Positions 35,014 through 46,227 of a stretch of 64,000 bases of DNA are shown in pieces; positions within the stretch are counted from its first letter, which is position 1; every line of letters begins with the position of its first letter. This DNA comes from Alphaproteobacteria bacterium (GTDB lineage: Bacteria; Pseudomonadota; Alphaproteobacteria; Bin95), in contig CBDBGH010000003.1 in assembly GCA_965205265.1 (NCBI GenBank), positions 4,320,001 through 4,384,000 on the forward strand, read 5' to 3'. The position numbers and the translations under genes are program-made. The notes beneath the pieces were generated by a model. It saw only the letters and a list, made by a program, of their open reading frames with translations, searched no databases and was not told the origin of the DNA.

Positions 35014-38000
35014 ATGGTTGCGAACCTGAACGACCTCAGTTCGACCACGATGACGGTCGAGTATTTCGCGGAGGAGGGCTACTACGCGAAGAACGACCCG
35101 CGGCAGCGCCGGGCGAGCTTCTGGCACGGGGGCGCGGCCCGCGCGCTCGGCCTGCCGAAGCATGTCTCGCCGCGCCGTTTCGAGCGCATTCTGCTGGGCT
35201 ACGTGCCGGGCACGGATATCCGGCTCGGTCGGGCGCGTGACGGGGAGCACCAGCACAGGCCGGGCTTCGATCTCACGCTGTCGGCGCCGAAGACGGTCTC
35301 GCTGGAGGCGCTTCTGTATGGCGACCGGCGGGTTCTGGGCGCGCACGATGCGGCGGTGAAGACGACGCTCGACTGGCTGGAAGGGACCCTGCTGCAGACA
35401 CGGTCGTACGATCCCGTGACCCGCCAGCGTCCGCGCGTGGCGGCGAACGGCCTGGTGGCGGCCGGGTTCCGGCACTTGACGAGCCGGGACGAGGACCCTC
35501 AGCTGCACACGCACTGCATCATCGCCAACATGACGCGCAACCGTTCGGGCGAATGGCGAAGCGTCGAGCCGACGGAGATGCGGCGCAATGTGCGGTTGAT
35601 CGGGGCGGTCTACCGCCAGGAGCTGGCGCGGCGCCTGCTGGCGCTCGGGTTCCGGATCGAGTCGACGATGATCGGCGGCGTGCCGGGGTTCGAGATCGCG
35701 GGCTACGGGCGGGAGTTCGTGGACGCGTTCTCGTCCAGGCGGCGCGAGATCCTGGCGTGGCTGGACGAGCACGGGCTGCCCTGGAGCGCGGCGCTGACGC
35801 AGCAGGCGGCGCTCATCACCCGCAAGAAGAAGACGGACAAGGACATCGACGATCTGAGGGCGGAGTGGAAGGCGCGGGTCGAACGGCTCGGGCTTGTCCG
35901 GGACCGCAGCGTCGCGAAGCCGGGCCTTGGTCGCAGGGCGCAGGCAACGCAGAAGGCGGCGCGCAAGGCCGGGCGTCCCTATGTGCGCACGGCGGAGGAG
36001 CTCAGGCCCGAGCCGCCGGGGCTGAGTGCGCGGGAAGTGGTCTGGCGCGCGGTGGAACATCTTGCCGAGCGCGCCTCGGTCATCCGGGAAACCGACATAA
36101 GGGCGCTCGCGCTCGGTCACGCGCCCGGCCGGCACGAACTCGGAGATATAGACGCAGCGGTGACGGGGCTGGTTGCCGACGGCCACCTGGTGGAGGCGCA
36201 GGTCCTGGGCGGCCGGTCCTTCGCGACCCGGGAGGCGCTCGGCCTGGAGCGCGCGATCATGGCCCACAGGCGCCGGGCGCTCGGCGCCTCGGAACCGGTG
36301 GCGGAGGAAGGGCTCGTCTCGGGCCGGCTTGCCGAAACGATGCTCACCGAAGGGCAGAAGGAGGCGGTGCGCACGATCCTGTTGTCGCATGACCGCATCG
36401 TCGCGGTGCAGGGCGCGGCAGGCACCGGCAAGACGACCATGCTGAAGGAGGCGCTGGGACTGCTGGGCGAGCGCAAGGCGGTCCTGCTGGCGCCGTCGGC
36501 CGCCGCCGCGCGGGTCCTGCGGGAGGAGACCGGGTCCCGGGCGCGGACGCTGCAATGGTTCCTCACCCGCCATGGCGACCTCGGCAACGCCGCGCGTGTG
36601 GCGCGGGACCGGCAGGAACACGAGGGCTCGGTGCTGGTGCTGGACGAGGCGTCGATGGTCTCGACGGCGGAGATGGAGCTGCTGTTGCGGGTCGCGGAGC
36701 GGCTGCGGGTTGCGCGGCTGGTGCTGGTTGGCGACCGGCGCCAGCTTCGCGCCGTGTCCGCCGGCGAGCCGTTCCGGGCGCTGCAGGAGGCGGGCGTGGC
36801 GACGGCGGAGATGGAGGAGGTCCTGCGCCAGCGCGACCCGGCGCTGAAGGCCGCGGTCGAGCATCTGAAGGAGGGCCGCGCGCGCGAGGCGCTGCAAGGG
36901 CTCGAACATGTGCATGAGGCGCCGCAGCAGGAGCTGGGCGCGGAGGCGGCCCGCATCTGGCTTGCGCTCGATCCCGGCGAGAGGGAGCGGACGGCGATCC
37001 TGGCGCCGACGCATTTCATCCGGGCGGAGATCCACCGGGTCGTGCGGGACGGGCTTGCGCGCGAGGGTGTGCTGCACGGGCGCGAGCTGGAGATCGAGCG
37101 CTATGTGAACCGGCACCTGACAGCGGCGCAGCGGGCGGACCTGCGCAACCACGAGCCGGGCGACATCGTGCTGTTCCATTCGCGCGTGGCGCCGCTGCGG
37201 GTCGAGAAGGGCGACGCCTGCCGGGTGATGCGCACGGAGGGGGAGCTCGTCTTCCTGGAGCACCCGACGGGGCGCACCTTGCACATCCGGCCGGGCGACA
37301 ACTGGGTGCGCTACCGGTTCGGGCTCTACGAGACGGCGCGCATCCGCATCCGGGCGGGCGACCGCATCCGCTGGACGATGAACGATGAGCCGCGCGGACT
37401 CGTGAACGGCGGCGAGGCGGTCGTGCGGGAGATCGGCCCGCGCCGGGTGAAGTTCGATCTCGGCGACGGCAAGACGCTGTCGCTCGCCCGCACCGACCCG
37501 CAGCTTCGCCATATCGACCATGCCTGGAGCACGACCGTGCATGCGGCGCAGGGCATGACCCGCGATCGCGCGATCGGCGTGCTCGACACGGGACACGGGG
37601 CATTGACCGGCCAGGCGGGCCTCTATGTGGAGGTGAGCCGGGCCAGGGACCAGTTCGTGCTGGTGACCAACGACCGCGAGCGGCTGGAAGAGGTTCTGGA
37701 AGCGAATGACGGCGCGCGCATGACGGCGCTGGAGGCGGTGGGCGAGGGGGAGGACCCGCCGCCGGGCGCGCCTGCCGCAGCGCTTGCGATGCTGCGCGGG
37801 CTGGAGGCGGACTGGCGCCGGCTCGTCGTCCAAGCGGAAACACAAGGTCGGGAACTCACCCGCATGGAAGACTATGCCCGCATCGTCACCGGCGCGGCGA
37901 TGCTGGCGGAGGACATGGCGCTTCCCGCGGACCTGCGGGCGTTCGTGGAGGAGGTCCGGCGCCGGGACGCGCAGGCGATTGCGGAGCGCAAGCGCGGGTT

Positions 38001-40251
38001 CGCGTTCCTGCGCAGGGCCGAGATGCACTGCCGAGGCTGGCCGCTGCTGAAATGGGCGGCAGCAAAGCGCGGGCATTCGCTCGCCGCGCTACCGGAGCAT
38101 GCGGCCTGGCTGGCCGACGGCGAGGCGCTTGCCGGGACGGGAGAGCGGCTTCGGGCGGCGAGCGGCAGGAGCGTCGCCGGAAGGATTGCATCCGCGCTCC
38201 GGCGCCTGGAGCGCAGCCGCGAGGTGGACGAGGCGGAGCGGTTCCGGGAGGCCGCGGCGCGGCACGAGGCTGGCGCGCGGGCGGCGGGCCTCGATCCCCG
38301 CGAGGCGGCCGGTGCCAGGGCGCTGGCGCAATGGGCGGGACGGCTCCGGGGCCGGGAGATACCGGAGGCCGTGCGTCCGACCGTCGAGGCTTGGTGTGAG
38401 GCGGCCAGGGAACCCGTGCCTGCTTCCGAAACGCGCCGCCGGGAAACCTCTCCGACGCCCGACGACAGGAAGGCCGCGCTGCAGATCGAGCTGTTCCTGG
38501 CGGATTGCGACGGTCTCCTGTTCGAGGCCAGCCCTGGAGCCGCGGAACTGCCAGCCGGCGCCGGACAACCGGTCCCCTGGAACGATCGGGCGGAGATGCT
38601 TCGCCGGCAGGGGCTCCGCATGCTGGGCGAGGGACCGGGCGCCTGGCTCGACGATCCGCTGCGTATCCGCCTTGCGCGTGTCGAGGCAGACCGCGTGCGG
38701 GTCCGCGAAGCCGTTGACAGGATCGCAGAGGCAGCGCTGCAGCGCCGCTCGGAGGAGTTCATGGCGCTTGGACGCCTCGTCCGGCGGCGCTACCGGGAGG
38801 CGAAGTCCGATCCGGTCGACGTCGAGGAATGGGCCGCGCTCCGGGACCGGGCGGAGGCGCTGCGCGGCGAGCCCGGCCTGTCGCCGTCGGTGGAACGCGC
38901 CGTGCGCTGGGTGCGGGAGCGGGACGCCCGCGCCAGGGCCGAGACCCGGCCGGTCGCGGCGTTCCTGGAAACCGGCGGCGCGCATCTGCGGCGGCGAGAG
39001 GCAATCGAGGAGACGGCCCGGTCGCGGGGCGTCGCGCCCGTAACGCTGGAGGAAACGGCGGCCTGGCGGGACGGCTGCGCCGGTATCCGCGGCGCCGGGC
39101 GGCGCCTGCTTGGCGAGACCAGCGGCGATGAGGCGGAGACCCGGGCCGCCCGCCGTCTTGCCGACATGCCCCGTTTGAGAGGCCGGGTACGGGAGGTCCT
39201 GGACCGGCTGGATGCGGCTGAGATGCAGGACCGGAGAGACCGGTTCCATGCGCTTGCGGACGAGGTCGAGGCGCAGGCCGTCGAACGGGACGCGCTGGCG
39301 CTTCATGCCGATGGCTATGCGGGCGCAATGGCGCTCGCGGAGGAACTGCAGAGCTCGGAGGCGCTACCGGAAACGCTCCGGCAGAGGGTCGAGGGCTGGC
39401 TCTCCCGCGACCGCCAGTGGCAGGAGGAGCTGGCGTCGGTCGCCCGGCTTGCGGGCGCGACCGCGAAATCGGCCAATCCGGCCGCGCGCCGCGAGGCTGC
39501 TGGCCGGCCTGCGGTGGCGGAGGCCATACGCCGCGAGACCGCCCGGCTCGCGCGTCTGCCGGAACCCGGGCGCACGATTCGCTGGACCGGGGAGGAGCCG
39601 CTCGTTCCGGGCGACCGGGTCCGCATCGCCGAGGGCGCGCACATGGTCGAGGCCGTCGTAATCTCCGCAGGAGCGGCAGGCGGCATACGCCCCGACGATG
39701 CGATACGGCTGCTGATCCTGTGGCCCGGGGCTGCGGGAGCGCCGCCCCGGGCCGGAGTCGTCATTCCCTATGATGCCGGGTATCTCGCCAAGTCCGGTTG
39801 CGTCCGCGCCGCCTGGGCCGATGAGGGACTACGGGAGCTGGAGCTGGCCCGGCATGTGTCCGTGCCATCGGCCTTCTGCCGCCTGCCCTGCGACGAACCG
39901 GTCCGCGGCGACCGCATCGCCTGGACCGAGACCGCCGGGGAGGATGGCCAGGTCCGCACCATCGAGGCCAGGGTGACGGCGCGGGCCAACGACATCCTCT
40001 ACGGCAGCGCCAGGCTGGAACTTGAAGCTCTCGAAGCCGCCGGTCCCGACGCACCCGAGCCGGGCAGTGGTATCGAGAGGACGGCCGCCGCCGTCGCCGC
40101 CCGTGGCTGCTTCCGCGCCGAGTGGGGCGACGAAGCGCGCCGCGAGCGCATACTCAACCCGCCAAAGCCCGTCCAGGCGCCGCGGCAGGCGCAGCAACAG
40201 GAGCAGACACAGCGCATCGACCGCTCTGAAGGTGGCGGTTTGCGCATGTGA
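35014..40251 (+). CDS. MobF (TrwC/TraI-like) relaxase-helicase with long C-terminal extension
   Basis: EGYYA, FDLTLSAPK.VS, H..SR..DPQLHTH, FSSRR motifs; helicase GAAGTGKT, LDEASM, GD..QL, TVHAAQG. Confidence 0.93.
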   Translation: MVANLNDLSSTTMTVEYFAEEGYYAKNDPRQRRASFWHGGAARALGLPKHVSPRRFERILLGYVPGTDIRLGRARDGEHQHRPGFDLTLSAPKTVSLEALLYGDRRVLGAHDAAVKTTLDWLEGTLLQTRSYDPVTRQRPRVAANGLVAAGFRHLTSRDEDPQLHTHCIIANMTRNRSGEWRSVEPTEMRRNVRLIGAVYRQELARRLLALGFRIESTMIGGVPGFEIAGYGREFVDAFSSRRREILAWLDEHGLPWSAALTQQAALITRKKKTDKDIDDLRAEWKARVERLGLVRDRSVAKPGLGRRAQATQKAARKAGRPYVRTAEELRPEPPGLSAREVVWRAVEHLAERASVIRETDIRALALGHAPGRHELGDIDAAVTGLVADGHLVEAQVLGGRSFATREALGLERAIMAHRRRALGASEPVAEEGLVSGRLAETMLTEGQKEAVRTILLSHDRIVAVQGAAGTGKTTMLKEALGLLGERKAVLLAPSAAAARVLREETGSRARTLQWFLTRHGDLGNAARVARDRQEHEGSVLVLDEASMVSTAEMELLLRVAERLRVARLVLVGDRRQLRAVSAGEPFRALQEAGVATAEMEEVLRQRDPALKAAVEHLKEGRAREALQGLEHVHEAPQQELGAEAARIWLALDPGERERTAILAPTHFIRAEIHRVVRDGLAREGVLHGRELEIERYVNRHLTAAQRADLRNHEPGDIVLFHSRVAPLRVEKGDACRVMRTEGELVFLEHPTGRTLHIRPGDNWVRYRFGLYETARIRIRAGDRIRWTMNDEPRGLVNGGEAVVREIGPRRVKFDLGDGKTLSLARTDPQLRHIDHAWSTTVHAAQGMTRDRAIGVLDTGHGALTGQAGLYVEVSRARDQFVLVTNDRERLEEVLEANDGARMTALEAVGEGEDPPPGAPAAALAMLRGLEADWRRLVVQAETQGRELTRMEDYARIVTGAAMLAEDMALPADLRAFVEEVRRRDAQAIAERKRGFAFLRRAEMHCRGWPLLKWAAAKRGHSLAALPEHAAWLADGEALAGTGERLRAASGRSVAGRIASALRRLERSREVDEAERFREAAARHEAGARAAGLDPREAAGARALAQWAGRLRGREIPEAVRPTVEAWCEAAREPVPASETRRRETSPTPDDRKAALQIELFLADCDGLLFEASPGAAELPAGAGQPVPWNDRAEMLRRQGLRMLGEGPGAWLDDPLRIRLARVEADRVRVREAVDRIAEAALQRRSEEFMALGRLVRRRYREAKSDPVDVEEWAALRDRAEALRGEPGLSPSVERAVRWVRERDARARAETRPVAAFLETGGAHLRRREAIEETARSRGVAPVTLEETAAWRDGCAGIRGAGRRLLGETSGDEAETRAARRLADMPRLRGRVREVLDRLDAAEMQDRRDRFHALADEVEAQAVERDALALHADGYAGAMALAEELQSSEALPETLRQRVEGWLSRDRQWQEELASVARLAGATAKSANPAARREAAGRPAVAEAIRRETARLARLPEPGRTIRWTGEEPLVPGDRVRIAEGAHMVEAVVISAGAAGGIRPDDAIRLLILWPGAAGAPPRAGVVIPYDAGYLAKSGCVRAAWADEGLRELELARHVSVPSAFCRLPCDEPVRGDRIAWTETAGEDGQVRTIEARVTARANDILYGSARLELEALEAAGPDAPEPGSGIERTAAAVAARGCFRAEWGDEARRERILNPPKPVQAPRQAQQQEQTQRIDRSEGGGLRM

Positions 40252-40572
40252 AGGCGCGTATTTAAGAGGATTATGTCGGGTAGTGCCCAAATGGGCTGAA
40301 ATTCAACCCGGAGGCTGGCTTGGTTTCCGGGCTTCTTTCTCCGGCACCCATTTGCCGTCTTGCCAGTATTCCAGTTCACCGGGTCGGGCACCATGACGCA
40401 CTCTTACAGCGGGCGCGTTCAAATCAGGCTCTCCGGGCGGGGTCCTCGGCTTGTCCTTGTTCTCGCCTATTTTCATCGAGATGGTAGTCTCCTTAGAGCC
40501 TGACCCGAAAAGAGTTGAGCGGTTTCAAGGGTTTGTGATTCAGTTCGTTTGGAAGCCGAACGGAGATCACGG

Positions 40573-41003
40573 ATGCCCTGGACCGAAACCGCTCGCCGAG
40601 AGTATCGGCGGGATTGCCCGCGCTATGCAAGCGATGTGACTGATGGTGAATGGGCTTTGATCGAGCCCTTCATGCCGTCGCCCTGCGGTATCGGCCGCCC
40701 GCGCAAGACCGATCTGCGCGAGGTCGTGAACGCGGTGCTGTATATGGCCTCGACGGGATGCCAGTGGCGCCAGTTGCCGAAGGACTTCCCGCCGGTCTCG
40801 ACGGTGCAGCGCTATTTCTACCAGTGGCGTGACAGCAGGCTGTGGCAGACGATCCGGTTCCATCTGGCCGTGCAGGCACGCGAGCGCGAGGGGCGCGAGG
40901 CCCAGCCGAGTGCGGGCGTGATCGACAGCCAGACGGTGAAAACCACCGAGGCGGGCGGGGTCAGCGGCTATGACGGTGGAAAGAAGATCAAGGGCCGCAA
41001 GCG
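40573..41003 (+). pseudogene. IS5 transposase, N-terminal part
   Basis: YASDVTD.EW, GRPR, TGCQWR.LP, IDSQ.VK, GYDGGKKIKGRKR; cut by IS66. Confidence 0.9.
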
Positions 41004-41093
41004 GTAAGCATCCGACAAGGGCCGCAGGGTATGTCGGTTTGAGTTTGTCGGCGGCGCGCGGCTGATCGGGACGGATCAGGTGAGCTTGTCTGG

Positions 41094-41316
41094 CTATGCG
41101 GCGTGATTGTGCCGCTGGCTGTCCTGCCAGTTCCAGGGGAGGAGTTCGCCGAGCCGGCTCTGCGGCGTCTCTGCGATCCGGCGCAGGACATCGGCGAGCC
41201 AGGCCTGGGGGATCGACGTTGTTGAGCTTGGCGGTGCCGATGAGGGTATACATGGCTGCGGCGCGCCTGCCGCCGCGGTCGGAGCCGGCGAACAGCCACG
41301 CTTTGCGGCCGAGTGC
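41094..41316 (-). pseudogene. tnpC: IS66 TnpC C-terminal part
   Basis: LGRKAWLFAGSDRGG..AAMYTLIGTAKLN.VDP / QAWLADVL...LLPWNW; +1 frameshift in a G5 run near 41207-41211. Confidence 0.88.
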
Positions 41317-41801
41317 GATCGTGCATTCATTCTGCCCATGTCGGGCAGGACTGCGTCATCCATTACCCGTGGCATGCCCATTTCGGCCGCCGTGTCCGCC
41401 TTGAAGTTATCGAACAGCGTGCCGACGGCCTCATGGCCTCTGTCGAGGTAGAGCCCGGGCTGGTCATCAAGATTCCCGCCTGGTCGCTCGATCCTGCGTC
41501 ATGCGCCGGCATGGAGATCGGCGCGCCGCGTGTATCCCTGGCCGCTCTTGCCGCGCTTCACGAGGTTCTCGTCGGCCAGGGTTTTAGACGAAGCTCCTCC
41601 GCTGACGGGACGGTTAGTGAGGAGGAGCTCAATGAAGTCTTTGGCTGTACCGGCGAGGCCGCCGGGCGAGTTCCGACAGCTCAGCATGCTGTTGGACACA
41701 CCGGCGCTGCGTGGCCTGAACCGGGAGGAACGCGACGCGGTCGTGGGCGCGCTGGCCGGGCTGCTTCTGGAAGCGGCGGATTTCGCGGTGAAGGAGGATG
41801 A
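41317..41801 (+). CDS. accessory ORF1 of the LSR element (IHYPWH motif, Y4bD/Y4pK-like); its start lies at the other end of the element
   Basis: Frame is open from the att core; motifs IHYPWHAHFG and IPAWSLD; no RBS/ATG upstream of the motif in the integrated state. Confidence 0.65.
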
Positions 41802-41817
41802 CGATGAGCACCTCTGA
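41632..41817 (+). CDS. accessory ORF2 of the LSR element (61 aa)
   Basis: GAGGAGGAG RBS; MKSLAVPARPPGEFRQLSMLL...ERDAVVGALAGLLLEAA; overlaps the LSR start. Confidence 0.7.
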   Translation: MKSLAVPARPPGEFRQLSMLLDTPALRGLNREERDAVVGALAGLLLEAADFAVKEDDDEHL

Positions 41818-43876
41818 TGCGTTGCCGCGATCGGTGTTGACGCGCAAGGCCGTGGTTTATGTCCGTCAGTCCACGCCCCAGCAGATGCGGAACAATCTCG
41901 AGAGCCAGCGCCGCCAATACGATCTCGTCAACGTGGCGCGCGGGCACGGTTTCGCCCGGGTTGAGGTCATCGACGAAGATCTGGGCCTGTCGGCGAGTGG
42001 CGCCATCGCACGGCCGGGTTTCGAGCGTCTCGTCGCCTGGCTGTGTGCCGGGGACGTCGGAGCGGTACTTTGCTTCGAGGCGTCTCGCATCTCCCGCAAC
42101 GGCCGGGACTGGCACCATCTGCTCGAGCTCTGCGGTCTCGTGGAGGCCCGCGTCATCGACCTGGATGGCATCTATGATCCTCGCCACCCAAACGACCGCT
42201 TGCTGCTCGGACTTAAGGGCCAGATCAGTGAGTTCGAACTCGGCGTTCTCCGCGCACGGATGCTCGACGCCGCCCGATCCAAGGCAGCGCGCGGCGAGCT
42301 TCGCATCAGCGTCCCGATCGGTTACGTGTGGCATCCCCAAGGCGGGCTGGGGCTGGATCCTGACATTCGGGTTCAGGAAGCGATCCGTCAGATATTCGCC
42401 CGATTTCGCGAGCTGGGCAGCGCGCGGCAGGTCCTGTTGACGCTGGTCGAGCAGCAGCATTGCTTCCCGCGCCCGTCAGATGGCAGGACAACGGTTAGCT
42501 TCGACTGGACGCCGATCCGCTATCGCAATGTGATTTCGGTATTGAAGAACCCCTTCTACGCTGGTGTCTATGCCTACGGCAAAAGCGAACAACGAACCGA
42601 GATCGTCGACGGGCGGGTGCACAAAAGCTATGGCCACCGGAGACCGATGGCGGAATGGGAGGTCATGCTGAAGGACCATCACGAGGGCTACATCGATTGG
42701 GCGGAGTTCGAGCGCAACCAGGCGCAACTCGCCGCCAACGCCTTCGGCTGGTCCGGCGGCGCGAAGTCCGGGCGCGGCGGACGGGCGCTGCTGAGCGGAC
42801 TTCTCAGCTGTGGGCGCTGCGGCCGCTCAATGTCAGTCGCCTATGCTGGGCAATCACCGGGCAATCCTGTTTATTTCTGCAACCGGCAACACCTCCAGCT
42901 CGGGCTCGATCGCTGTCTGAGGTTCGGCGGCGCGCGTGTGGATGCCGCCATTGCCGATGAGATCATCGGGGTCGTCGAGCCCTTGGCCGTGGAAGCCTCC
43001 TTGAAGGCCGAGCGGGTGAAGGTGGAGGGCCTGAGCGAACAACAGCGAGTGGCCGAGCTGGACCTGCAGCAAGCCCGCTACGAAGCATCACTCGCCGAGC
43101 GGCGCTATGCCGCCTGCGATCCGGACAACCGGTTGATTGCCGCCGAGCTGGAGAAGAGTTGGGAGGCGGCGCTTCGCCGCGTCCAGGTGTGCGAAGCGCG
43201 GCTGGAGGCAATGCGGTCGCCGTCACCGCAGCCCTCGGGACCGGATCTGGCCGGGCTTGCCGATGACCTGAAGGCAGCCTGGAACGCGCCGGGGGTGAGC
43301 ATGCGTGCCCGCCAGCGGCTCGTACGCACCCTGATCGCCGGCATCGTCGCCGATGTCGACGAGGAAGCGCGCGAAGTCCTGCTGACGATCCACTGGGTCG
43401 GTGGCCGCCATTCCCGATTGCGGGTTCGAAAGCCCAGAACCGGTGAACATGGCTGCCGAACGCCCGAGGAAGCGCTGGCGGTGATACGCAGCATGGCCGG
43501 GCGGTGGTCGGACGAACATATCGCTGCGTCTCTCAACCGGATGGGCATGCGGACCGGCCAGCACAAGAGCTGGACCGGCAAGCGGGTCGGATCGATCCGT
43601 CGCGTGAACGGGATCGACGGCTATCTCTCAGCGGACAAGCAGGGCGATTGGTACACCATGACCGAGGCGGCGAACGAGTTGGGCACCACCAGCCATACGC
43701 TCAGGCGCCTCATCGAGGATGGAACGCTACCCGCCACGCAGCTCGTTCCCCGAGCGCCTTGGCAGATCAGAGCCGCGGACCTCCATTCAGAGAGCGTTGC
43801 TCACGCCCTGGCACAAAGGAAAGGCCCGCGTCGCACTTCATGCCGGGATCAGATGTCAATGTTTTCAGATAGTTGA
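41804..43876 (+). CDS. large serine recombinase with zinc ribbon and C-terminal HTH
   Basis: YVRQST catalytic Ser, RPGF, SRISRN, LKNPFYAG, CGRCG; terminal HTH MTEAANELG...LRRLI; AGGAGG RBS. Confidence 0.93.
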   Translation: MSTSDALPRSVLTRKAVVYVRQSTPQQMRNNLESQRRQYDLVNVARGHGFARVEVIDEDLGLSASGAIARPGFERLVAWLCAGDVGAVLCFEASRISRNGRDWHHLLELCGLVEARVIDLDGIYDPRHPNDRLLLGLKGQISEFELGVLRARMLDAARSKAARGELRISVPIGYVWHPQGGLGLDPDIRVQEAIRQIFARFRELGSARQVLLTLVEQQHCFPRPSDGRTTVSFDWTPIRYRNVISVLKNPFYAGVYAYGKSEQRTEIVDGRVHKSYGHRRPMAEWEVMLKDHHEGYIDWAEFERNQAQLAANAFGWSGGAKSGRGGRALLSGLLSCGRCGRSMSVAYAGQSPGNPVYFCNRQHLQLGLDRCLRFGGARVDAAIADEIIGVVEPLAVEASLKAERVKVEGLSEQQRVAELDLQQARYEASLAERRYAACDPDNRLIAAELEKSWEAALRRVQVCEARLEAMRSPSPQPSGPDLAGLADDLKAAWNAPGVSMRARQRLVRTLIAGIVADVDEEAREVLLTIHWVGGRHSRLRVRKPRTGEHGCRTPEEALAVIRSMAGRWSDEHIAASLNRMGMRTGQHKSWTGKRVGSIRRVNGIDGYLSADKQGDWYTMTEAANELGTTSHTLRRLIEDGTLPATQLVPRAPWQIRAADLHSESVAHALAQRKGPRRTSCRDQMSMFSDS

Positions 43877-43906
43877 AGAGGGGGTGCAGAATGACTCCAT
43901 CGTCGC

Positions 43907-45286
43907 AATACCGCGCAGACAGCGCTCGGCGGCATTGTTCGAGAGGCAGATGCGCCCGTCGTCGAGGAAGCGGGCGAAGCGGTCCCATCGTCTGAGCATG
44001 TAGTCCATGGCCTTGGCGACGGGGGCATGGCGGGAGAGCCTGGCGCGTTCGGTCTTCATCCAGGTCTTGAGATCGGCGACGAGCGGCGCGCTCAGCTCCT
44101 GGCGGACGGCATGGCGCCGCGCGACGGTCTTGCCGTTGATGTCGCGCTTGATGTCGAACAGCAGGTCGATCCGCTTCACGGCTTCCATCGCCAGCGGCGA
44201 GATCGGCGGCGCGTTCCTGCGCCCCTTGCCGGCGGCAATGTCGGCGCGTTCGAAGAATTTGCGTCGACCATGCGCCCAACAGGGAACTTCGGTGACAGGC
44301 CCGGGCAGCCGCGTGGCCGCGTAGAGGCGGTTGTAGCCGGCGAAACTGTCGGCCTGGAGGATGCCGGCGAAGCTCTCCAGGTGCTCGACCGGATGATCGC
44401 CGGACCGGTTCCGCGAGTAGCGGAACAGGGCCGCCGGCGGGTCCGGACCGCCGAACGGCCGGTCGTCGCGGACATAGACCCAGGCCCGGCCCTTGTCGGT
44501 CTTGCCCCTGGCCAGCACCGGCACCGGCGTGTCGTCGCCATGCAGGCGTTCGGCCGCCATGACATGCGATGCGATCAGGTCGTGCAGCGGCCTCAGCGCC
44601 ACCGTGCAGGCGCCGACCTGGTCGGCCAGGGTCGACAGGCTGAGGTCGACGCCTTCGCGCGCGAAGCGGTCGCGCTGGCGGTTCAGCGGCTGGTGCTGCC
44701 CATACTTCTCGAAGACGATCGTCGCGAGCAGGTTGGGGCCCGCCCAGCCGCGCGGCGTCGGGTGGAACGGCGCCGGCGGCTGGCTGATCTTCTCGCAATC
44801 GCGGCATGTGAACTTCTCGCGCACCGTCTGGATCACCTTCCACTGGCGCGGAATGACCTCCAGCGTCTCGGTGACGTCCTCGCCGATCTTGGAGAGCTTC
44901 TGCGAGCCGCAGCATGCGCAGGCGTCCGGCGGCGTCACCACCACGCGCTCGCGCGGCAGATGCGCGGGGAACGGCTTGCGCCCGAACCGGCGGCGGCGGG
45001 TGAAGCCCTTGACCCGGGTCGCGCCGGCCGCCGCCTGTTCGGCCGCCAACTCGTCCTCGGTCGCGCTCGCCTCGAGCTCGTCTAGCTGGAGTTCCATCTG
45101 GTCGAGAAGCCGCTGCTTGCGCTCCGAACGCTGGCCGAAAAGCGCGCGGCGCAGCTTCTCGATCATCAGCTTCAGGGCGGCGATCTGCGCTTCGGCGTCG
45201 GATACCTGCGCCTCGGCGTTCGCGGCCCGGCTCTCGGCCGCCGCCAGCGCGGCCTTCAGCGCGTCGATCTCCGATCCGTCCGGCAT
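43907..45286 (-). pseudogene. tnpC: IS66 TnpC N-terminal part
   Basis: LFGQRSE, HLPRE, CxxCG, LHGDDTP, CWAHGRR, NNAAERCLRGI; interrupted here. Confidence 0.9.
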
Positions 45287-45357
45287 GAACGGAAGCGAAT
45301 CACAACAGCCGCTACGCCGCCATGCCGATCCTGTGCGATGAGTCCTTTTGCCGCCCG

Positions 45358-45705
45358 TCAGCCGGCCCGCGACGGACGCCAGGTCCGCACCGGGTTGCGC
45401 CAGTCGATCCCTTCAAGCAGGTAGCCCAGCTGCGCCGCGCTGATCGACACCGCCTCGCCCGAAGCCGAAGGCCAGGGGAACCGGCCGCGCTCCAGGCGCT
45501 TGGCGTAGAGCGACGTGCCGATCCCGTCGGTCCAGAGAATCTTCACGAGGTCGCCCTTGCGTCCGCGGAATATGAAGAGATCGCCCGCATGCGGGTCCCG
45601 CCCGAGACCCTGCTGGACCTGCAGCGCCAGCGTGTTCATCCCGCGCCGCATGTCCGTCACGCCGGTCGCAAGCCACACCCGCGCCCCGCTCGGAACCGGG
45701 ATCAT
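45358..45705 (-). CDS. tnpB: IS66 accessory protein
   Basis: TDMRRG, FIFRGR, KRLERGRF.W motifs. Confidence 0.92.
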   Translation of the reverse strand: MIPVPSGARVWLATGVTDMRRGMNTLALQVQQGLGRDPHAGDLFIFRGRKGDLVKILWTDGIGTSLYAKRLERGRFPWPSASGEAVSISAAQLGYLLEGIDWRNPVRTWRPSRAG

Positions 45706-46115
45706 CGCCGTTCCAGAACCCCGAGAACCCGCGACAGCGCCGCCGCGTCCACATCCCGGTCCACCGTCACCCGCGAGCCGTCCGCAGCCAGCGCAATCTC
45801 GATCCGTCCGGAGGCAGACGGCTCGATATCCGGCGCCGGCAGCAGCTTCGCAGGCTCCGCCCCTTCCGTCGAAGTGACGACCACCGGGACGAAGCCGCCC
45901 ACCACGCGCGCCAGCTCCCGATACTGGCGGCGCCAGCTGAAGACCATGTTCGCGTTCACGTCATGCCGCCGCGCTACCACCGAAACCGAAACCCCGGGCT
46001 GGTAGCTCTCCGTCACGATCCGGCGCTTCTGCGCCTCGCTCCAGCGACGGCGGCGGCGGCGAAGCCGAACCTCGCCCCCGGCGCCCGAATGCTCCGCGTC
46101 GTCCGACATCCGCAT
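45702..46115 (-). CDS. tnpA: IS66 accessory HTH protein
   Basis: RRRWS.AQK.RIV.ES, VARRHDVNAN.VFSWRR. Confidence 0.88.
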   Translation of the reverse strand: MRMSDDAEHSGAGGEVRLRRRRRRWSEAQKRRIVTESYQPGVSVSVVARRHDVNANMVFSWRRQYRELARVVGGFVPVVVTSTEGAEPAKLLPAPDIEPSASGRIEIALAADGSRVTVDRDVDAAALSRVLGVLERR

Positions 46116-46227
46116 AGTGCCCACTTATCCTTGATGGACACTTACGCGCGCCCATCCCTGAGCGCGAACCCTCGCCGATCCACGACAAAGCCGACAGGCG
46201 GTCTACGACGGATGCTTACCGCAAGCG

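Follow-up and report, generated by a model that had tools for sequence, protein, structure and literature searches.

The first gene of a small recombinase-encoding element in an alphaproteobacterial genome is probably complete only when the two ends of the element are joined in a circle, and its product is predicted to bind the recombinase. The element lies in a 64,000-nt stretch of contig CBDBGH010000003.1 (assembly GCA_965205265.1; hereafter the window, within which all coordinates are given), where it interrupts tnpC, the transposase gene of an IS66-family insertion sequence (IS). It is a minimal, IS-like unit that encodes a large serine recombinase (LSR) and two small open reading frames (ORFs), ORF1 and ORF2. 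Its attachment site, attP, falls inside one of these reading frames: the Shine-Dalgarno (SD) sequence, the ATG and codons 1-5 of ORF1 are found at the right end of the element (43878-43905), and the body of the gene runs from 41316 at the left end.

Because the genome carries five copies of the element that are 100% identical over 2588 bases and each have different flanks, the ends could be fixed to a single base, giving 2588 bases between the cores (41317-43904) and a 2590-bp circle with one core counted once. The attP plan consists of an arm, 10 nt, a 2-bp core, another 10 nt and the opposite arm. The ORF1 ATG sits 16 nt inside the right end and the ORF1 body begins at the first base of the left end; the right-end ATG, 13 further nucleotides and the core C are in frame with the codon at 41316-41318 (5 + 161 = 166 codons), with ORF1 residues 2-5 encoded by the right-end 10-nt spacer (43895-43904). 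A preliminary description of this DNA had proposed the GC core, the symmetric arms, the ribosome-binding site (RBS), the ATG, an in-frame ORF1 of 166 aa and a 2590-bp circle, and its coordinates and arithmetic were correct throughout. Its gene order for the circle (ORF1, ORF2, LSR, 14-nt gap) stands for the co-directional genes and the gap, but ORF2 is nested in the last third of ORF1 rather than forming a separate gene between ORF1 and the LSR.

The recombinase contains Resolvase (PF00239, 8.1e-22), Recombinase (PF07508, 4.5e-17) and Zn_ribbon_recom (PF13408, 2.8e-07) domains followed by a C-terminal HTH_17/excisionase-like domain. In its AlphaFold2 (AF2) model, a coiled-coil hairpin (helices 379-439 and 445-473) is placed between the zinc-ribbon strands and later strands, with predicted local distance difference test (pLDDT) values of 77-94 in that region. 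The structural marks of the LSR class are present: the resolvase, Recombinase and zinc-ribbon order, the coiled-coil hairpin in the zinc domain, arms that form an imperfect inverted repeat, and a 2-bp core with no duplication of the target.

Scanning a single genome per species gave 135 confirmed relatives. The 80 best loci (L020-L099) were retained and, with the window copy, make 81: 48 complete elements, 19 whose contig stops short of the right end, and 14 in which the LSR is decayed or interrupted and the right end cannot be recognised. Complete relatives span Alpha-, Beta- and Gammaproteobacteria, with ORF1 identity to the window copy falling as low as 35%, and hosts include Sinorhizobium meliloti, Paracoccus denitrificans, Azospirillum brasilense and Polaromonas. 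Several contigs consist of just the element (~2.6 kb), with ORF1 beginning at base 2-5. An ORF1 profile search recovered 2076 representative clusters at E<=1e-3 (843 at E<=1e-10), and a tblastn search with ORF1 gave matches in 201 plasmid records, mainly from Rhizobium, Sinorhizobium and Bradyrhizobium.

The right-arm ATG occupies the identical position in all 48 complete elements, which represent 42 distinct joints and 8 single-linkage clusters at 70% identity, and no locus with right-end context lacked it. A purine-rich SD lies 5-8 nt upstream of this ATG in every case, with duplex energies of -6.7 to -13.0 kcal/mol (mean -9.1), compared with a mean of -3.1 kcal/mol for 1920 random windows from the same elements, 13% of which reach -6. 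In 37 elements 14 nt separate the ATG from the LSR stop, in 8 the two overlap as ATGA, and a spacing of 13 nt, a spacing of 38 nt and read-through occur in one element each. The 14-nt gap and the ATGA overlap are two classic operon linkages, and they are sensible only if ORF1 comes after the LSR. The core dinucleotide is the same at both ends in 40 of the 46 assessable relatives; where the cores are unequal in L048, the right core would give a stop in the joint frame, and with the left core the frame across the joint is open in 48/48. The preliminary description had asked whether RBS, ATG and frame across attP would survive when homologs were circularised: all three are kept in every complete element.

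Some variation at this end is also worth recording. In the eight elements with the ATGA overlap (L040, L044, L049, L052, L069, L074, L088 and L093), a circle would link all genes stop-to-start in a closed loop. The LSR stop has been lost in L045, where the frame reads through the right end into the flank, and L043 is a larger variant of ~2.97 kb in all, with an open LSR frame of 764 codons and a TA core at both ends.

Integrated copies were compared for other possible starts of ORF1. No conserved internal start was found, the first in-frame ATG, GTG or TTG ranging from codon 2 to codon 57 without a consistent SD. Among 64 distinct integrated left junctions, 28 contain no in-frame start before a stop, and just three have a start with an SD of -6.7 kcal/mol or better, the level of the weakest right-end SD. 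At the opposite end of integrated elements, the right-end ATG opens short outward ORFs with a median length of 28 aa (n = 39). The N-termini of 91 database ORF1 proteins bearing the HSAH motif are highly heterogeneous, and ORF1 is not called in the RefSeq record of Polaromonas naphthalenivorans pPNAP04.

Naturally joined ends are present in public data. A metagenome contig of 2389 nt (L124) contains the LSR 3' end, SD, ATG, an intact attP with an AC core and the ORF1 domain; the insert within its ORF1 tail (positions 217-1745 of the contig) is presumably an IS3-family element, judging from its gene layout (orfA + orfB). Furthermore, proteins in four clusters (P0010, P0031, P0050 and P0064, from contigs of 660-2712 nt) begin with M and eight residues before HSAH, the first five resembling residues encoded by the right end; a fifth cluster (P0117) is doubtful. 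An N-terminus of this joint type cannot be supplied by the target. Joined ends were found in 0/99 genome loci, and none of 15 hits among viral contigs came from the element family. The remaining 29 of 30 metagenome hits to the attP-arm motif were rejected as unrelated genes that happen to encode HSAH. In the host's own data, the element forms one 2593-nt unitig in run X1, and a contig with the empty site is present in run X6. The proposal of the preliminary description that attP separates the translation signals of ORF1 from its body, such that only joined ends would complete the gene, is supported by the conserved right ends, the lack of a conserved internal start, the startless junctions and these natural joints.

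Entropies of 0.67, 0.61 and 1.40 at positions 1, 2 and 3 of codons 15-45 demonstrate coding periodicity, and ORF1 is a genuine gene. Its conserved part, residues 5-95, folds as an SH3-like barrel with helices; the tail is unconserved but always open. The AF2 model contains a confident four-stranded SH3/KOW-like barrel and two helices, with pLDDT >90 for residues 11-60 and disorder from residue 96. Fold searches with ORF1 returned only generic SH3/KOW/Tudor-like barrels (Foldseek, none at E<=0.001; VIA-align, Z <=6.0, within the chance range), and ORF1 and ORF2 matched no family in Pfam, NCBIfam or PHROGs; 30 of the 49 ORF1 relatives gave a weak Pfam match to Raffinose_syn (best E 4.3e-05), which was taken as a short-motif artefact. 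ORF2 is conserved in 40/40 elements analysed, with the motif RQLS..FDS..LRGMS..ER..LA.LL.EAAG and an acidic end. Of 43 distinct elements, 42 have an ORF1 stop that overlaps the start of the LSR (ATGA in 28, GTGA in 6, CTGA with an ATG 2 nt on in 6, TTGA in 2; other in 1), and the ORF1 frame is open to the LSR start in 40/40 elements, for which chance is ~0.29 per element if ORF2 alone were constrained. The selected feature of the ORF1 tail seems to be the passage of ribosomes and not the peptide.

Structure prediction suggests a direct partner for ORF1. When ORF1 and the LSR were modelled together, the complex reached an ipSAE of 0.66 (0.68, 0.66 and 0.66 in separate runs) against 0.00 for the best control, a mark that 58 of 80 solved complexes attained, as did 2 of 110 mismatched pairs, although these counts are rough here since our own alignments were used. 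The runs share at least 80% of contacts, with partner pLDDT of at least 71. In the modelled interface, ORF1 helix 66-91 and parts of the barrel rest on LSR residues 338-344, 388-405, 481-512 and 530-540, which flank the coiled-coil hairpin (H379-439/H445-473) and correspond to the zinc domain and coiled-coil foot. Known recombination directionality factors (RDFs), although unrelated in fold, are all predicted to bind the zinc-domain/coiled-coil junction of their LSR, according to PMC12286644. ORF1 is thus predicted to dock at the RDF binding place, and the idea in the preliminary description that ORF1 is a state sensor acting on recombination gains a predicted interface at this site.

The element has a narrow target. 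Joining its flanks restores the minus-strand tnpC codons ...RGIA/LGRK..., the insertion lying at the GC core in IA/LGRK, and the interrupted TnpC carries DDE_Tnp_IS66 (PF03050, 1.1e-80), zf-IS66 (PF13005) and LZ (PF13007) domains. Across relatives, the right flank encodes antisense IS66 TnpC in 35 of 39 cases and breaks it off at residues 458-460, with 28-100% identity to the TnpC of the window, which supports the earlier suggestion of a specialised IS66 parasite. The target site, attB, is close to a palindrome (GGCCGA..GC..TCGGCC), and its usual core, GC, reads the same on both strands. The five insertions in this genome occupy all three copies of the closest IS66 type, one other IS66 type and one non-IS66 gene; ~20 further tnpC copies (~40% identity), whose open frames span 581-595 aa, appear uninterrupted.

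Exceptions to this target pattern were also observed. At four loci (L020, L062, L077 and L085) the insertion has the opposite orientation relative to tnpC, and polarity may be loose; the right end is unrecognisable in L020, L062 and L085, the L077 contig ends before it, and these loci may be aberrant recombination products. The copy in the non-IS66 gene (L002; G000:C3 3807738-3810325) occupies the site GGCCGAG-GC, one base shorter than the IS66 site, and looks like a secondary attB; its left flank, ...YVPFYFTPYSPMQLNILSGRG, resembles DUF4433/DarT-like proteins. Two further copies (L004 and L005; G000:C3 2326519-2332098) lie head to head, ~400 bp apart, and L004 has an IS66-like left flank and a different right flank, suggesting rearrangement between copies.

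A mechanism can be proposed from this anatomy. In the integrated state, the right-end SD, ATG and four codons would be read out into a short junk peptide, and the startless ORF1 body at the left end would be silent. Upon excision, the LSR would join the ends to give the order ORF1 (with ORF2 nested), LSR, ORF1 and so on, and a transcript passing through the LSR and across the joint would yield full-length ORF1; such read-through round the circle is assumed because no promoter was found. The protein would bind the LSR at the zinc-domain/coiled-coil junction and, because ORF1 translation would end on the LSR start codon, the circle would make a recombinase-bound regulator plus more recombinase, until integration split ORF1 again and turned it off. 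In the reading we prefer, ORF1 would steer the LSR to re-integrate or keep it from re-excising, and the integrated element would have ORF2 as its available factor; in the circle, ORF2 would be damped by ORF1 translation running through its start. Tentatively, the whole could amount to a topological directionality switch, in which the state of the DNA (ends joined or apart) decides whether an LSR-binding factor exists: the circle would make ORF1, silence ORF2, feed the LSR start and so integrate, and the integrated state would behead ORF1 and leave ORF2 to serve the next excision.

Several observations weigh against ORF1 being made and used in this way. The right-arm ATGA mirrors the left-arm TCAT; the ATG belongs to the arm inverted repeat and attP geometry fixes the in-frame ATG-CAT distance at 27 nt, so that by themselves the ATG and the frame are weak evidence. 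Codons 2-9 carry no protein-level constraint, and seven of the 64 targets provide an in-frame ATG six codons upstream, from the K-S-W codons of tnpC. The window copy itself has a target-derived GTG at the core (41313). No sigma-70-like promoter was detected by consensus scan in 400 nt around the computed joint or in 41100-44100, and no circle junction was found for this genome: of the assembled contigs of runs X1, X3, X5 and X6 over 41000-44200, none runs from the right end back to the left end, although contigs drop rare variants and so are silent on rare circles. L124 is the sole DNA contig with joined ends among the 30 attP-arm pattern hits, and it is disrupted by its IS3-family insertion. 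The ORF1-LSR complex is a model and not a measurement, and if ORF1 were a canonical RDF, promoting excision and blocking integration, its production only in the circle would be counter-productive. The first of these points lead to an alternative in which the right-end ATG and frame are by-products of the inverted repeat of the LSR site, the purine tract derives from the site or the LSR 3' region, and ORF1 is made in the integrated state from an internal, non-canonical or target-supplied start or by ribosomes coming from flanking transcripts. This reading would also accommodate codons 10-14 (HSAHV), which are invariant at all three positions and hence constrained at the DNA level, and the xTG present at the core of some targets. 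We nevertheless consider it unlikely. The SD is strong in 48/48, yet nothing in the left arm mirrors it; two elements have TAT or AAT in place of the left-arm CAT and seven have C for its T, whereas the right ATG never changes and the A that follows it varies once; the link to the LSR stop, by a 14-nt gap or an ATGA overlap, is conserved; and nearly half of the integrated copies are startless, with no conserved internal start to replace the one at the right end. The SD, the fixed link to the LSR stop, the asymmetric variation and the lack of another start are unexplained by symmetry. The GTG at 41313, which the preliminary description named as a start that would refute its proposal, is confined to the window copy; GGG stands there in the other four.

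ORF1 could otherwise be an ordinary excision-promoting RDF, for which the joint would matter only through time spent as a circle or tandem, with enough protein arising by leaky initiation or in trans from circles of sister copies. The predicted interface at the RDF site (PMC12286644) agrees with this, as does the presence of five copies, since one circle could act on the others. It is nonetheless quite improbable in our view, as an RDF produced chiefly once the element is excised would hinder a 2.6-kb circle that does not replicate from integrating again, most integrated copies offer no start, and ORF2, with its own SD, is available when the element is integrated. We give very little credence to a third reading, in which the public joined ends are tandem copies or assembly artefacts and the element is immobile, spreading by hitch-hiking inside IS66. 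Joined ends are indeed rare in assemblies, and the element occurs in every copy of the closest IS66 type of this genome; but L002 lies outside IS66, L004 has a different right flank, IS66 hosts sharing as little as 28% identity are hit at the same codon, 34 distinct elements have an intact LSR with 65-89% conservation, and joint-type N-termini come from four or five separate protein clusters of different sources. Completion of ORF1 in the circle remains our preferred, and the probable, reading.

Parts of this arrangement have precedents. Tn4451/Tn4453 also encode a large serine recombinase and, as is proposed here, their joint activates a recombination gene only in the excised form; a circle-specific promoter for tnpX of Tn4451 is said to have been described by Lyras and Rood in 2000, and IS110/IS1111 reportedly belong to the IS with circle junction promoters. 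The joined ends of ICEclc (Pcir) and ICEKp1 (P3'end) likewise switch on a recombination gene only when excised, as stated in PMC13023037. These circle-junction promoter systems act at transcription, through a promoter that forms at the joint, as when -35 and -10 elements are brought together, or through one that the joint puts upstream, whereas here the joint assembles a reading frame and RBS, and a consensus scan found no promoter-like site there. SSV-type ('suicidal') integrases of archaeal viruses and plasmids have the recombination site inside an element gene, which integration splits and only the circle holds whole (PMC7253208). The likeness to our element lies in an attP within an element ORF that is split on integration; in SSV-type systems, however, the split gene encodes the tyrosine integrase and is cut mid-gene, whilst here the serine recombinase is intact and an accessory gene is split, with just the SD, ATG and five codons detached. 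In integration-dependent immunity of the mycobacteriophage BPs, attP lies within a regulatory gene whose integrated and excised products differ and set the switch (PMC4557955). There, in a phage, the 3' end changes, a degradation tag is lost and the integrated form is active; here, in a 2.6-kb element, the 5' end with all initiation signals is removed and the integrated form should not be made. RDFs of other LSRs (phiC31 gp3, SPbeta SprB and Bxb1 gp47, among others) resemble ORF1 as small, unconserved accessory proteins encoded with an LSR and predicted to bind at the zinc-domain/coiled-coil junction (PMC12286644 and PMC5814800), but they are whole genes under transcriptional control that promote excision, and ORF1 is split by attP and has canonical signals only after excision.

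The preliminary description had considered the arrangement undescribed. This holds insofar as no description of this family was found, but genes split or altered by attP are known in tyrosine systems and circle-specific promoters in Tn4451 and integrative and conjugative elements. No paper returned by the literature searches dealt with the family, with insertion of an LSR element into IS66 tnpC or with DUF5372; the LSR catalogue 10.1101/2021.11.05.467528 may list these recombinases. What sets this case apart is a serine-recombinase element in which only the initiation signals of an accessory, RDF-like gene are detached, within a tight translational loop.

The arrangement suggests that the direction of an LSR may be controlled by DNA topology and not by transcription, which bears on how transposon-like serine recombinases choose between excision and insertion. 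If the topological switch were true, the element would be a self-contained two-state recombination circuit and a widespread hyperparasite of IS66 transposases missed by annotation pipelines; a conserved gene can escape annotation when, as here, its start codon sits at the other end of the element. The family strikes one conserved codon position in very diverse IS66 transposases and may limit the spread of IS66. It could also yield compact pairs of recombinase and factor for genome engineering, and it is present in tractable bacteria.

Table 1. Positions of the recombinase element, its attachment sites and the interrupted transposase gene in the window
Feature	Position	Strand	Description	Basis
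attL	41295..41335	+	Target half-site (antisense IS66 tnpC codons LGRK...), core GC 41315-41316, 10-nt spacer 41317-41326, arm TCATTCTGC 41327-41335	Five copies with different flanks
attR	43886..43925	+	Arm GCAGAATGA 43886-43894, 10-nt spacer 43895-43904, core GC 43905-43906, target half-site (antisense tnpC ...RGIA)	
ORF1 body	41316..41801	+	161 codons + stop, without own start codon; TGA 41799-41801 overlaps LSR ATG 41798	
ORF2	41632..41817	+	61 aa; own SD GAGGAGG; nested in +1 frame inside ORF1 tail	
LSR	41798..43876	+	Large serine recombinase, 692 aa; stop TGA 43874-43876	
ORF1 translation signals	43878..43893	+	SD GAGGGGG 43878-43884 and ATG 43891-43893; 14 nt between LSR stop and ATG	
Interrupted IS66-family tnpC, N-terminal part	43907..45286	-	460 codons; DDE_Tnp_IS66, LZ_Tnp_IS66, zf-IS66	
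Interrupted IS66 tnpC, C-terminal remnant	41094..41314	-	One extra base near 41207 shifts frame	

The frame shift in the tnpC remnant stems from one extra G/C in a homopolymer (41201-41208) relative to the other copies and to contigs of runs X1 and X5. Beyond the interrupted gene, two small ORFs on the minus strand (45358-46124) are presumably IS66 tnpB and tnpA, and upstream of the element a plus-strand ORF of 1745 aa (35014-40251) encodes what we take to be a conjugative relaxase. An Rfam search of 40500-45500 matched no family.

Membership of ORF1 in DUF5372 (PF17342) was considered and rejected. A distant link is suggested by language-model features of ORF1, which point to DUF5372 clusters (0.93), and by a shared cassette order: a true DUF5372 cassette in another genome (G226) shares the order of a DUF5372 gene, a small HTH gene and an LSR with C-terminal HTH_17, as well as an HP.xGR motif common with ORF1. 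By HMMER at E<=1, 0/49 ORF1 relatives matched the family and the window protein was unmatched, and hhalign supported a link only weakly (probability 15.7% over 21 columns). In G226 the DUF5372 gene may start at a GTG and lies ~290 nt into the repeated unit, unlike the split ORF1. This cassette (L153, 4353-9981; also L154 and L155), in which the small gene is of the HTH_32/HTH_23 type and the LSR has 859 aa with C-terminal MerR/HTH_17 domains, has three copies inside 130 kb, each set in a more extensive repeat.

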